Below are positions 34,410 through 37,858 of a DNA stretch of 62,425 nucleotides, one piece after another. The number at the start of each line of letters is the position of its first letter. The stretch's first letter is position 1. The notes under the pieces were generated by a model. That model searched no databases, was not told the origin of the DNA, and saw nothing but the letters and a program-made list of their open reading frames with translations. Location of the stretch: the IMG/VR virus record IMGVR_UViG_2877269240_000007; one strand, written 5' to 3'. Source of the stretch: a virus. Lineage: Duplodnaviria; Heunggongvirae; Uroviricota; Caudoviricetes. The translations under genes and the position numbers were made by a program.

Positions 34410-35468
34410 TGAGGTGTACTGGCAATAGCGGACACTACCATTTGTTCTTTTTTTAAGCAGCCATCTGATGATATTTTTCCCTGAAGGCTGCCGGGGAGAT
34501 ATTCCCCAGACGAGAGTGACGACGCTGACGATTGTAGAAAATCTCAATGTATTCCCGTATTACTGAGATGGCTTCATCCCGGTTATTAAAACGATAGTGG
34601 CTCAGGCTCTCATTTTTCAGCGTTCCCCAGAAGCTTTCCATCGGAGCGTTGTCGTAACAGTTACCTTTACGCGACATTGATGTTTTCAGACCAGACTGCT
34701 CCTGTATGACCCGGTAATCGTATGCGCAGTACTGTGAACCTCGATCAGAGTGGTGGATTAGCCCGGCAGGTGGGCGCTGGCTCCTGAGCGCCATAAACAG
34801 GGCTTTACCTGTCAGCTCTTTTGTCATGCGCTCTCCCATGGCGTAGCCGACAATTTCGCACGTATAAACATCTTTGATGCCAGCAACATACGTCAGGTCC
34901 GCCACCCAGACCTGATTTGGTGCTGTAGGAGCGAACGTCTGGTTCAGCAGATTTGGCGCAACTGGCAGATTGTGGTTCGGGTTCGTAGTCGCTCTGAACT
35001 TGCGTTTCTGCTTACAGCGTAGCCTCAGCTCCTTACGAAGACGTGCCAGTCGGTCACGACCAACGATGATGCCATTCTCTGCCAGCTCCGTCTGGAGCCG
35101 CCGGGTTCCATATGTTTCGCGAGTGCGGATATGTGCCACCTTAATCTCCAGTTTTAGCCGCTCATCACTTTGTTTTCTGTCTGAGGGTTCATGCTGTACC
35201 CAGTTGTAATAACCGCTCCTGGATACACCAAATACCTGACACATCGCTTCAATGGGAAATTGTTGTCGCCATTGTTCGATTAACGCGTATTTTTCAGCGA
35301 CTCCTGTGCAAAATACGCTGTTGATTTTTTTAATATATCGCGCTCAAGGCGAGCTTCATTTAACGCCTTACGCAGTTGCAGAATTTCAGATTCCAGTTCA
35401 GCCACCGTGCGGGAACCAGGAGTACCGAGCCCTTTTCTGGCGGCGGTAACCCATTGTCCTGAAGGCAC
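34410..35468 (-). mobile_element. IS600 partial copy (27-bp deletion variant; orfA 5' end and left IR missing)
   Basis: right IR at 34410; homology ends inside orfA at 35460-35468 where IS629 begins. Confidence 0.85.
34453..35244 (-). CDS. IS600 OrfB (9-aa deletion variant)
   Basis: 263 aa. Confidence 0.8.
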   Translation of the reverse strand: MCQVFGVSRSGYYNWVQHEPSDRKQSDERLKLEIKVAHIRTRETYGTRRLQTELAENGIIVGRDRLARLRKELRLRCKQKRKFRATTNPNHNLPVAPNLLNQTFAPTAPNQVWVADLTYVAGIKDVYTCEIVGYAMGERMTKELTGKALFMALRSQRPPAGLIHHSDRGSQYCAYDYRVIQEQSGLKTSMSRKGNCYDNAPMESFWGTLKNESLSHYRFNNRDEAISVIREYIEIFYNRQRRHSRLGNISPAAFREKYHQMAA

Positions 35469-35510
35469 TGAACCGCCCCGGGTTTCCTGGAGAGTGTTTT
35501 ATCTGTGAAC

Positions 35511-36397
35511 TCAGGCTGCCAGATCATCGTTTCCGATGGAAGCATAATAAGCTTTTTCTGCTTCTGCCGGAGGGATGTGGCCCAGCCTTTCCAGCAATCG
35601 TCGATTGTTATACCAGTCCACCCACGTGAGTGTGGCCAGTTCCACTTCTGCACGGTTTTTCCAGCTCTTACGGTGTATTACCTCCGCTTTGTAAAGACCA
35701 TTGATGCTCTCCGCCATCGCGTTGTCATACGAGTCGCCTGTACTTCCTGTTGATGCCAGTAATCCGGCTTCCTTAAGCCGCTGTGTGTAGGCCAGCGATA
35801 CATACTGAGAACCTTTATCACTGTGATGGACCGTGCCGGACGGTCGACGGGCCCATAACGCCTGCTCCAGTGCATCCAGCACGAATGTCGTTTCCATGGA
35901 CGATGAGACCCGCCACCCCACGATGTATCCGGCAAACACATCAATGATGAACGCCACATAGACGAAGCCCCGCCATGTGCTGACGTAAGTAAAATCAGCC
36001 ACCCACAGCTGGTCAGGTCGTTCTGCCACGAACTGACGGTTTACGCGGTCGCCTGCGGCAACGGCTTTCCGGCTGATGGTCGTACGGACCTTTTTACCCC
36101 GGAGAACACCGGCAAGTCCCATAACCGCCATGAGACGTGCCACAGTGCATCTGGCCACTCTGATACCTTCCCGTAACAACTGACGCCAGACTTTACACCG
36201 TATACCTTGTGATTTTCATCGTATACGCGCTGTATCTCTTTCTTCAGCCAGTCATCGCGCTGCGCACGGGCACTGCGTTTATCCGGATGATGTCGCTGTT
36301 GCTGACAGTGGTAATACGTTGACGGGGCAATATGCAGTTCGCTGCATAGCGGTCCGCCCCCGTACTGCTCACGCAGCTTATCCAGCAGTGGCATCAT
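35511..36397 (-). pseudogene. IS629 OrfB, frameshifted
   Basis: two overlapping ORF pieces (36041-36397 and 35511-36179) covering one IS3-type integrase-domain protein. Confidence 0.7.
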
Positions 36398-36720
36398 TTT
36401 TTCCAGAGGCGGTCGAACTCCGCCTTCGCAAAATAAGCGGAAGCCTGGCGAAGGATATCGTTACTGCGGCGCAGTTCACGATTTTCACGCTCCGGCTCTT
36501 TCAGACGCTGACGTTCAGCGGTGGTGAGCCCTCCATCACCGCCCCCGGTATCCCGCTCATGCTGGCGACCCCAGACACGCAGAGTCTCCGGCGTACAGCC
36601 AATCTTTGGAGCAATGGAACAAATTGTCGCCCATTGTGAGTCATATTCGCCCTGACTTTCCAGAACCATACGGACTGCCCGTTGACGGACTTCGGGGGAA
36701 AAACGAGTATTTTTAGTCAT
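36394..36720 (-). CDS. IS629 OrfA
   Basis: 108-aa [31 protein letters not shown]... Confidence 0.85.
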
Positions 36721-36776
36721 CCTGTTTACCTCTTTCTCAGGAAGTTTAGTCTCCAGGATTCCCGGGGCGGTTCACA

Positions 36777-37858
36777 CTTTAGGACAATGGGTTACCGCCG
36801 CCAGAAAAGGGCTCGGTACTCCTGGTTCCCGCACGGTGGCTGAACTGGAATCTGAAATTCTGCAACTGCGTAAGGCGTTAAATGAAGCTCGCCTTGAGCG
36901 AGATATATTAAAAAAAGCAACAGCGTATTTTGCACAGGAGTCGCTGAAAAATACGCGTTAATCGAACAATGGCGACAACAATTTCCCATTGAAGCGATGT
37001 GTCAGGTATTTGGTGTATCCAGGAGCGGTTATTACAACTGGGTACAGCATGAACCCTCAGACAGAAAACAAAGTGATGAGCGGCTAAAACCGGAGATTAA
37101 GGTGGCACATATCCGCACTCGCGAAACATATGGAACCCGGCGGCTCCAGACGGAGCTGGCAGAGAATGGCATCATCGTTGGTCGTGACCGACTGGCACGT
37201 CTTCGTAAGGAGCTGAGGCTACGCTGTAAGCAGAAACGCAAGTTCAGAGCGACTACGAACCCGAACCACAATCTGCCAGTTGCGCCAAATCTGCTGAACC
37301 AGACGTTCGCTCCTACAGCACCAAATCAGGTCTGGGTGGCGGACCTGACGTATGTTGCCACACAGGAGGGATGGTTGTACCTCGCTGGCATCAAAGATGT
37401 TTATACGTGTGAAATTGTCGGCTACGCCATGGGAGAGCGCATGACAAAAGAGCTGACAGGTAAAGCCCTGTTTATGGCGCTCAGGAGCCAGCGCCCACCT
37501 GCCGGGCTAATCCACCACTCTGATCGAGGTTCACAGTACTGCGCATACGATTACCGGGTCATACAGGAGCAGTCTGGTCTGAAAACATCAATGTCGCGTA
37601 AAGGTAACTGTTACGACAACGCTCCGATGGAAAGCTTCTGGGGAACGCTGAAAAATGAGAGCCTGAGCCACTATCGTTTTAATAACCGGGATGAAGCCAT
37701 CTCAGTAATACGGGAATACATTGAGATTTTCTACAATCGTCAGCGTCGTCACTCTCGTCTGGGGAATATCTCCCCGGCAGCCTTCAGGGAAAAATATCAT
37801 CAGATGGCTGCTTAAAAAAAGAACAAATGGTAGTGTCCGCTATTGCCAGTACACCTCA
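36777..37858 (+). mobile_element. IS600 partial copy (orfA 5' end and left IR missing), inverted relative to 34410-35468
   Basis: homology starts at CACTTTAGGACAATGGG inside orfA; right IR ends 37858. Confidence 0.85.
36997..37815 (+). CDS. IS600 OrfB
   Basis: 272 aa, with L-to-P change (KPEIKV). Confidence 0.8.
   Translation: MCQVFGVSRSGYYNWVQHEPSDRKQSDERLKPEIKVAHIRTRETYGTRRLQTELAENGIIVGRDRLARLRKELRLRCKQKRKFRATTNPNHNLPVAPNLLNQTFAPTAPNQVWVADLTYVATQEGWLYLAGIKDVYTCEIVGYAMGERMTKELTGKALFMALRSQRPPAGLIHHSDRGSQYCAYDYRVIQEQSGLKTSMSRKGNCYDNAPMESFWGTLKNESLSHYRFNNRDEAISVIREYIEIFYNRQRRHSRLGNISPAAFREKYHQMAA

Follow-up and report, generated by a model that had tools for sequence, protein, structure and literature searches.

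How two truncated copies of the insertion sequence IS600 came to face each other across a copy of IS629 is the question raised by positions 34410-37858 of the window, by which we mean the whole stretch of 62,425 nucleotides that was analysed. The first-pass annotation suggested an inversion or a template-switch event and regarded the composite as the reason why the prophage cannot package DNA. The analysis presented here leads to a different reading. The composite is probably the scar left in a decaying lambdoid Shigella flexneri prophage when a single deletion, made by slippage at a hairpin, removed 1866 bp.

Structure of the composite locus

The features of the locus are collected in Table 1. 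Both arms were aligned with the intact 1264-bp IS600 copies of the same window (16911-18174 and 2610-3873), to which each is at least 99% identical over IS600 positions 181/187-1264. They belong to IS600 (IS3 family) by this near-identity and by the presence of orfA, orfB and the right inverted repeat (IRR), which is found at the outer end of both arms as CTATTGCCAGTACACCTCA. The left inverted repeat and the 5' end of orfA (positions 1 to about 180) are absent from both, and neither is a complete element. The alignment confirms that IS629 lies between two inverted 3' portions of IS600, and not between the 5' and 3' halves of one element. That both arms are truncated in orfA had been noticed correctly; their ends, however, are close but not identical: the left arm stops at IS600 187-190 and the right arm at 181. 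Over 582 + 485 nt the two arms show 99% complementarity, and chance need not be considered. Six IS600 copies, in addition to other insertion sequences, are found in the 62-kb window.

Table 1. Features of the composite locus and its immediate flanks (positions in the window)
Feature	Position	Strand	Basis or remark
Rha-family phage gene, 5' 180 nt (597 nt when intact), interrupted by IS600 A	34230..34409	+	ORF list
Left arm, IS600 copy A, IS600 positions 1264 down to 191 (187 including TCCT)	34410..35456 (35460 including TCCT)	-	IRR present
TCCT, 4-nt microhomology at the deletion junction	35457..35460	.	alignment
GAAGGCAC, 8-nt remnant of the 5' part of copy B, IS600 176-183	35461..35468	+	alignment to intact IS600
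IS629, 1306 bp, both inverted repeats	35469..36774	-	orfA intact (108 aa), orfB frameshifted
Right arm, IS600 copy B, IS600 positions 181-1264	36775..37858	+	IRR at outer end; orfB (272 aa) intact
Nu1 3' remnant (nt 203-510; lambda-type small terminase), followed by the large terminase gene gpA	37859..38166	+	sequence match

The central element was assigned to IS629 (IS3 family, about 1310 bp) by its two terminal repeats (TGAACCGCCCCGGG, at 35469 and 36774), its orfA and orfB and its 3-bp target duplication. This duplication is the CAC that had been seen on each side, located at 35466-35468 (the last three nucleotides of GAAGGCAC) and at 36775-36777. In a full-length comparison with the annotated IS629 copy of an O145 plasmid, the sole difference in length was a 4-bp deletion (GTGC), which reduces the element from 1310 to 1306 bp and frameshifts orfB. 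All three elements of the scar, the two IS600 arms and IS629, are now defective in cis.

The left arm is separated from IS629 by 8-12 nt, (TCCT)GAAGGCAC, which correspond to IS600 172/176-183 in the plus orientation and are what is left of the 5' part of the right-hand copy. The TCCT can be assigned both to IS600 190-187 of copy A (top-strand reading) and to IS600 172-175 of copy B. At this site intact IS600 reads CTTCCTGAAGGCACTTTAGGACAATGGG and contains a quasi-palindrome, TCCTGAAG-GCA-CTTTAGGA, which accounts for the short palindromic junction described earlier; the junction in the window reads CCCATTGTCCTGAAGGCACTGAACC. The TCCT direct repeat exists because of this quasi-palindrome at 172-190, and to supply it is the only role that we ascribe to the quasi-palindrome. 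As a strong structure it was rejected, since its local hairpin is weak (-3 kcal/mol, z = -0.3) and no better than that of shuffled sequence.

The same junction is found in at least four complete genomes and also in two draft contigs, one of S. flexneri K-218 and a noisy one (L010), and is therefore not an assembly artefact. An exact-pattern scan of species-representative genomes gave no IS600/IS629 junction, and a metagenome scan for this junction gave one unrelated insertion only. No description of this structure was found in the literature.

Ancestral arrangement in sister genomes

Comparison with related Shigella genomes, which the first-pass annotation had recommended, revealed the arrangement before the rearrangement in sister S. 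flexneri genomes. It consists of the flank, a complete IS600 A (minus orientation, target duplication GTC), a 1505-bp phage spacer, IS600 B (plus orientation, target duplication AAC) and the remaining Nu1, and the left ends of A and B face each other across the spacer. Copy B in this state already holds the same IS629 with its CAC duplication. All three target duplications are clean in L005, L007, L011, L012, L013 and L008, the last with an extra IS600; in L005, for example, the sequence reads GTC-A-GTC and AAC-B...-AAC. The ancestral junction GAAGGCAC/TGAACC is observed in L005, L013 and others.

The closest genome of this kind is L013. Over 11.9 kb the window equals L013 minus 1866 bp, save for a 27-bp deletion and two SNPs; one flank is identical over 3780 positions, and the other has a single difference in 3300. 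The deletion took out positions 186 to 1 of copy A, the spacer and positions 1 to 175 of copy B, and the two copies are joined at the 4-nt direct repeat TCCT. To derive the ancestral genomes from the state of the window by a simple insertion is impossible, as their 1866 extra bp are contiguous with intact phages.

The two arms carry the signatures of different copies. The left arm shares C307/T323/T497 with copy A of the ancestral-state genomes, while A307/G323/C497/T816 is common to the right arm and copy B of L013, L006 and L016. This indicates independent insertions, each with its own target duplication (GTC and AAC), and neither an inversion nor an inverted self-copy has taken place. IS629 in the window is 100% identical to IS629 at the same site in L013, and the 1306-bp length, with the same 4-bp deletion, occurs in all complete IS629 copies across all states of the locus. 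IS629 was thus in place before the 1866-bp deletion. The argument that a simple IS629 insertion leaves the two IS600 halves in direct orientation holds for the ancestral state, where they are indeed direct; however, the inverted arms of the window did not come from an inversion, and IS629 was inserted normally before the deletion.

One difference requires an additional step. The left arm alone has a 27-bp in-frame deletion in orfB (IS600 763-789, junction near 34883-34891), which is absent from the right arm. Neither this deletion nor G621, which the left arm also has, is present in copy A of the ancestral-state genomes, so a further event such as gene conversion is needed. Most likely the 27-bp variant was gained later in the lineage of the window by gene conversion from another IS600, and two such copies are present in the window.

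A third state of the locus is preserved in L009 and L014, in which a deletion stops exactly at the left terminus (IRL) of copy B and the junction reads GGGTCTGAGGTGAGGTAGCC. In the K-218 contig (L016) the junction of the window is present with a different outer flank, and later rearrangements have therefore occurred.

Effect on the prophage

The 1505-bp spacer contains the remainder of the Rha-family gene, a lambda-like cos and Nu1 nt 1-202, and in intact relatives it is continuous with the flank on either side. The cos motif is exactly where the linear genome record of phage mEp460_4F5 starts and ends, and it also resembles lambda cosN/cosB. With the 5' end of Nu1 and this motif, the deleted part belongs to a lambda-type cos/Nu1/gpA packaging module. 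Spacer positions 1-739 correspond to prophage type A and positions 653-1505 to type B, and the S. flexneri phage is thus a natural mosaic. An origin of the two flanks from different prophages joined by rearrangement was rejected, as the ancestral spacer bridges both. In FDAARGOS_943 and EIEC-like genomes the flanks are 76-635 kb apart, which had suggested such a two-prophage origin.

On the left, the Rha-family fragment receives its stop codon TGA from the IS600 end, and the resulting 60-aa fusion product occurs on 282 contigs under the name 'Rha family transcriptional regulator [Shigella flexneri]'. E. coli FDAARGOS_943 has the Rha-family gene intact (199 aa). On the right, the Nu1/gpA remnant is 100% identical to the intact Nu1/gpA of the same E. 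coli genome, with the match starting after the first 202 nt of the gene. The 107-aa product of the Nu1 remnant has a recorded Pfam PF07471 Phage_Nu1 hit, and the flanking gene a GpA_ATPase hit.

Compared with an intact phage, the prophage lacks the cos and the first 202 nt (40%) of Nu1, in agreement with the first-pass annotation; the 3' 70% of the Rha-family gene and a small ORF were lost with them. The loss of packaging, however, cannot be attributed to this event. IS600 B had split Nu1 before the deletion, as the ancestral state shows, and with the small terminase gene already broken the deletion leaves the phenotype of the prophage unchanged. The head region at the portal gene also carries indels relative to an intact relative.

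Proposed mechanism of the deletion

The order of the insertions and of the deletion can be read from the sister genomes. IS600 A entered the Rha-family gene in the minus orientation (GTC), IS600 B entered Nu1 at nt 202 in the plus orientation (AAC), and IS629 entered orfA of copy B at IS600 181-183 (CAC). A single deletion between A and B at TCCT then completed the composite.

The slippage itself we infer from the anatomy of the junction. On single-stranded DNA, positions 1-183 of A and of B could pair into a 183-bp stem with the spacer as its loop, 1871 nt in total, and IS629, where the homology of A and B ends, would define the stem base. On reaching position 187 of A, a polymerase would stall about 3 nt short of the stem. 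The TCCT at the 3' end could then re-pair with the TCCT of B, 8 nt inside the opposite side of the stem, and the hairpin would be skipped. Such inverted-repeat-stimulated slippage would be independent of transposase, as in the 'nearly precise excision' of Tn10.

The breakpoints fit this hairpin-base model unusually well. The deletion of 1866 bp is close to the 1871 nt of the inner hairpin, the stem of which has 1 mismatch in 183 positions, and by closeness to the hairpin base, a ranking devised after the junction had been seen, the TCCT pair is first among 928 candidate pairs of 4-nt repeats. The end points are thus direct repeats near the base of a hairpin, and size and rank together point to inverted-repeat-stimulated slippage. 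Against it count the microhomology of only 4 nt, the position of one TCCT copy 8-12 nt inside the stem, not outside it, and the weakness of the local quasi-palindrome hairpin. Of the two processes suggested by the first-pass annotation, inversion is not retained, while a template switch, understood as slippage at microhomology, is plausible for the junction.

Alternative explanations

The same starting structure and the same 4-nt microhomology would serve repair of a break, in which an enzyme such as SbcCD cuts the A/B hairpin or cruciform, or it breaks at a stalled fork, and the ends are resected and joined at TCCT by microhomology-mediated end joining (MMEJ). Overlaps of 4 nt are typical of microhomology joining (bioRxiv 10.1101/2023.06.07.543989, on IEE/MMEJ substrates). 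However, the hairpin should be cleaved close to its loop, at 0.9 kb from the stem base, and resection would need to halt within 12 nt of the base on both sides. The match of 1866 to 1871 and the first-ranked repeat pair would be a coincidence, and we consider this course unlikely. A strand switch associated with transposition is quite improbable. Here the nascent strand, during copy-out replication of IS600 A or a neighbouring insertion sequence, would jump to a nearby microhomology in the donor, possibly assisted by an IEE-type enzyme. This model has been proposed for the loss of IS629 and ISApl1, microhomologies of 2-4 bp are described (bioRxiv 10.1101/2023.06.07.543989), and the deletion in L009 and L014 at the IRL terminus of copy B suggests transposase action at the locus. 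The end points in the window, however, are not at termini; they lie 187 nt into A and 175 nt into B, at a distance of 8 nt from IS629, and the hairpin geometry already explains their position.

Two further readings are contradicted by the sequences themselves. If IS629 is left out, the quasi-palindrome marks the centre of the junction, and the sequence continues perfectly as a palindrome; this favours the earlier reading that a single IS600 with IS629 acquired an inverted copy of its own 3' part by inversion or by a fold-back template switch. But the arms have different nucleotides at 307, 323, 497 and 816, a 27-bp difference in length separates them, and the counterpart of each is a different copy that existed beforehand; the sequence outside the composite is not repeated in inverted form on the two sides; and the left copy stands at its own insertion site, with the GTC duplication in the ancestral state. 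The window is obtained from L013 by simple removal of 1866 bp, and the ancestral-state genomes refute this very improbable reading. Inversion by homologous recombination between inverted IS600 copies was rejected on logic, as it cannot truncate the copies, and the ancestral state is without inversion. Homologous recombination between two IS629 copies, inserted at one hot spot in oppositely oriented IS600 elements, with loss of the DNA between them, would draw on the fact that IS629-family insertions occur within a few bp of this site several times and in both orientations. It is extremely improbable. The left flank of IS629, TCCTGAAGGCAC, is plus-strand IS600, whereas an insertion into copy A would give TCCTAAAGTGCC; the CAC duplication on the two sides is that of a single insertion; and the ancestral genomes have one IS629 only at the locus. 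The junction sequence thus refutes it. The insertion of a composite transposon was also rejected: the triplets outside the composite are GTC and AAC, with no shared target duplication, and the flanks are 1.5 kb apart in intact phages, so the two IRR ends do not bound such an element.

Significance and a possible insertion hot spot

The locus is a natural and fully reconstructable case of prophage erosion in IS-rich genomes such as Shigella. Three states are kept in sister genomes (the ancestral state, the deletion described here and another deletion that differs from it), and the order of events and the exact breakpoints are therefore directly readable. For annotators, 'two truncated IS600 plus IS629' is to be read as one deletion scar, which is of modest practical value, and the junction could be used as a lineage marker within S. 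flexneri.

A stretch of about 20 bp in IS600 orfA (about 165-185, at the quasi-palindrome) might be a true insertion hot spot for IS3-family elements, which we regard as doubtful. Five apparently independent insertions were found in this stretch by searches centred on this site: IS629 at 181-183 in S. flexneri (antiparallel to IS600), at 183-185 in O145 plasmids (parallel) and at about 170 in O121 plasmids (antiparallel), a diverged IS629 relative after 183 in a metagenome contig (parallel), and IS600 itself at 165-167 in L008. Published surveys have revealed no target preference of IS629. If the hot spot were true, IS-in-IS structures would be systematic, interrupted inverted homology would steer deletions to hairpin bases, and a predictable route for the decay of IS clusters would follow.

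Comparison with known systems

This is an ordinary event of a known kind, with no new element or mechanism. It is similar to the nested insertion sequences, or 'IS islands', of Shigella and EHEC in that IS629 lies inside IS600 inside a prophage gene, and IS629 is often surrounded by other insertion sequences (PMC3271280). Unlike nested insertion alone, the two facing 3' portions require an extra deletion step. Deletions promoted by IEE or adjacent to insertion sequences (Kusumoto et al. 2011; bioRxiv 10.1101/2023.06.07.543989) also involve the IS3 family, a microhomology of 2-4 nt and loss beside the elements. However, such deletions begin at an IS end or take it away, and they depend on transposase, whereas the present end points are internal to IS600 and IS629 is whole at both ends.

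The precedent is the nearly precise excision of Tn10 (Ross, Swan and Kleckner 1979; Foster et al. 1981, both as cited in bioRxiv 10.1101/2023.06.07.543989), in which, as here, an inverted IS pair surrounds a central segment. The deletion in both cases occurs between short direct repeats arising from internal symmetry of the IS arms; the centre and the inner parts of the arms are removed, and a shortened inverted repeat is left, with end points off the IS termini. The likeness extends to slipped-mispairing deletion across hairpins of long inverted repeats in general. The repeat is 4 nt here and 24 bp in Tn10, however, and at no time did the two IS600 copies form a functional composite transposon. 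The arms of the present locus are, unlike those of Tn10, interrupted by IS629, which sets the base of the inner hairpin.

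Structure of the composite element

The composite at window positions 34410-37858 consists of IS629 placed between two IS600 portions, the left and right arms, which were aligned to the four complete IS600 copies that the window has outside the composite (Table). The inverted repeats on either side of IS629 comprise 582 and 485 nt and are 99% complementary. The right terminal inverted repeat forms the outer end of each arm, while the left one (IRL) and the first ~180 nt are missing from both. Both sides of IS629 bear CAC. Intact IS600 reads CTTCCTGAAGGCACTTTAGGACAATGGG at the IS629 insertion point, which is the centre of a quasi-palindrome, TCCTGAAG-GCA-CTTTAGGA. 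The 8-12 nt that separate the left arm from IS629, (TCCT)GAAGGCAC, are therefore IS600 172/176-183 on the plus strand, left over from the 5' portion of the right-hand copy. Measured against the IS629 copies of an E. coli O145 plasmid, the window IS629 is short of 4 bp, GTGC, and this loss explains its 1306-bp length and its orfB frameshift. All three pieces are defective in cis: both arms are without IRL and the orfA start, the left arm has in addition a 9-aa deletion beside the catalytic region (27 bp, in frame, IS600 positions 763-789), and IS629 has the frameshifted orfB. The first-pass annotation had described inverted 3' IS600 portions, CAC on both sides and a palindromic junction, and its proposed alignment of the junctions to intact IS600 bears this out.

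Features of the composite, of its ancestral state S1 and of insertions near the IS600 quasi-palindrome (TSD, target-site duplication)
Feature	Position	Strand	Remarks
IS629	35469-36774	minus	both terminal repeats present; orfA intact, 108 aa; orfB broken
Left arm	IS600 1264 down to 187	minus	alignment to complete IS600
Right arm	IS600 181-1264	plus	alignment to complete IS600
S1, IS600 copy A	complete	minus	left flank, GTC before; GTC and 1505 bp phage DNA after
S1, IS600 copy B	1-183, IS629, CAC + 181-1264	plus	AAC before; AAC, right flank after
IS629, S. flexneri	IS600 181-183		TSD CAC; window 35457-35468 and 36775-36781
IS629, O145 plasmid	IS600 183-185	other orientation	TSD CTT
IS629, O121 plasmid	abuts IS600 170		
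Diverged IS629 relative, metagenome contig	after IS600 183		
IS600 in L008	IS600 165-167		L008 13110-13120

States of the locus in related genomes

Related loci were retrieved by exact-sequence look-up of the 60-aa ORF that the left IS600 creates by truncating the phage gene. The assembly collection has this ORF in 387 blocks; sources name it a Shigella flexneri Rha-family protein. Three states, S1, S2 and S3, occur among the loci returned. S1 is present in L005, L007, L011, L012 and L013, and in L008 with one extra IS600. Its three elements each have their own 3-bp target duplication, so S1 is the product of three simple insertions. In L005 the IS629 within copy B is interrupted by a further ~1.25-kb insertion (13301-14549), presumably another IS judging by its rve and HTH_Tnp_1 ORFs; the nesting there has four levels (prophage gene, IS600, IS629, IS). 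S2 is the window arrangement, seen in LR213452.1 (L006/L015), in three further places, in L010, a noisy draft, and in L016, an S. flexneri K-218 contig.

In S3 (L009 and L014, 10176-10200 in each), at the same locus as window 34405-34415, the left flank reads GGGTC/TGAGG/TGAGGTAGCC..., the last being the IRL of copy B from its first base. The spacer (the 1505 bp of phage DNA) and all of copy A except the first 5 nt are gone. On the right, the deletion stops precisely at an IS600 terminus, which suggests either an adjacent deletion mediated by transposase or an event at a 2-nt microhomology. This deletion arose independently of that in the window.

Derivation of the window arrangement

The closest S1 genome is L013, with 0/3780 and 1/3300 nt flank mismatches and an identical IS629. 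When 1866 bp (A[186..1] + 1505 + B[1..175]) are taken out of L013, the result matches the window across 11.9 kb apart from the 27-bp deletion and two substitutions. The left arm has the copy A signature (C307, T323, T497) and the right arm that of copy B (A307, G323, C497, T816). Every complete IS629 copy in S1, S2 and S3 has the same site and the same 1306-bp length (L005 is interrupted and L014 gapped), and IS629 is therefore older than the 1866-bp deletion. Together these observations fix the order of events, and they exclude an inverted self-copy, recombination between two IS629 copies and an inversion. Inversion was one of the two readings suggested by the first-pass annotation, next to a template switch; the comparison with related Shigella genomes that it proposed found instead the pre-deletion arrangement, S1.

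Of the window's six IS600 copies, three carry the 27-bp orfB deletion (6052-7288, 21771-23007 and 34410-35460, junction near 34883-34891). The residues lost, ATQEGWLYL, directly follow the WVADLTYV motif, and the transposase is probably inactive as a result; its presence at three different sites points to spread by trans-mobilisation or gene conversion. The window left arm has this deletion and G621, and neither is found in copy A of the S1 genomes. The K-218 contig AFGV01000031.1 (L016 11087-11490) has the same junction with a left arm free of the 27-bp deletion. The left arm seems to have gained it after the 1866-bp deletion, and we infer gene conversion or IS600-IS600 recombination as the simplest account. 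The outer end of the L016 left arm adjoins an IS66-family transposase gene, not the Rha-family gene, which implies a later IS600-mediated rearrangement.

Spacer content and consequences for the prophage

Over its first 739 bp the spacer carries on the Rha-family gene, exactly as an intact prophage in E. coli FDAARGOS_943 does. The last 853 bp match a second prophage of this strain, whose Nu1 is lambda-type, over the Nu1 upstream region and the first 202 nt of Nu1; the two matches overlap by ~90 bp. The S. flexneri phage is therefore a natural mosaic, in which the two window flanks lay 1.5 kb apart. The motif around spacer 1045-1120 resembles lambda cosN/cosB. Both termini of the linear mEp460_4F5 phage genome record fall exactly at this motif (end …GGTGGCCTG, start CCACGGGGCGGGAGCG…), so cos was in the spacer.

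Missing from the window relative to an intact phage are 70% of the Rha-family gene at its 3' end, one small ORF, cos and Nu1 nt 1-202. The loss of cos and 5' Nu1 reported in the first-pass annotation thus stands, but not the loss of packaging through this event: Nu1 was already split by copy B in S1, and the part of the head region that surrounds the portal gene has indels relative to FDAARGOS_943. Decay of the prophage extends beyond the terminase lesion. The lambda-type portal gene is split (window 40250-41900), with a 351-aa N-terminal ORF and, in sister genomes, a second ORF of 137 aa behind it; the intact FDAARGOS_943 gene has ~530 aa (1593 nt). The 6.1-kb head-gene alignment has 4 gap openings.

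Part of a lambdoid late region, made up of a ~300-bp block, a tRNA-like stretch and the beginning of a holin gene, occurs twice, at 20597-21770, cut by IS600 at 21771, and at 31419-32205, 10.8 kb apart and 90-98% identical. The window thus contains what is left of at least two lambdoid prophages, interspersed with IS600 and with three copies of a 1258-bp IS (4366-5622, 18806-20066 and 23057-24314). A long inverted repeat lies near the window ends (993-2610 and 58805-60422, 56 kb apart; 1188 nt at 97% and 411 nt at 94%).

Insertions at the quasi-palindrome

Several IS3-family insertions, apparently independent of one another, cluster at the quasi-palindrome of IS600 orfA, positions ~165-185 (Table; further coordinates L001 3575-3585 and 4895-4900, L020 1783-1790 and L017 3785-3790), in searches centred on this site. 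E. coli VR50 has one more IS629 in IS600, at ~124. A published survey reports no target preference for IS629 (PMC3271280). Several apparently independent entries of IS629-family elements into IS600, all within a few bp of this site, are the most interesting by-product of the analysis.

Mechanism of the deletion

The deletion junction lies within TCCT, at A 190-187 (top-strand reading) and B 172-175, a 4-nt direct repeat that exists only because of the quasi-palindrome. This is probably the only role of the quasi-palindrome, itself a weak structure. In S1, A[1-183] is an inverted copy of B[1-183] except at one position; past position 183, IS629 interrupts the homology of B to A. The potential hairpin with the spacer as loop has 1871 nt, against 1866 nt deleted; the deletion starts 3 nt outside the stem base on one side and ends 8 nt inside on the other. 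Of the 928 4-nt direct-repeat pairs shared between A and the 5' part of B, the TCCT pair is nearest the stem base. This geometry is as expected for replication slippage across the A/B hairpin with the junction at TCCT, which we infer as the mechanism. A break of the hairpin followed by microhomology joining is possible, as is a transposition-associated strand switch (bioRxiv 10.1101/2023.06.07.543989), but both account for the position of the deletion less well than slippage.

No description of the IS600/IS629/IS600 scar was found in the literature searched; the kind of event behind it is already well known. Slippage across a hairpin has the same geometry in the nearly precise excision of Tn10, according to references cited in bioRxiv 10.1101/2023.06.07.543989.
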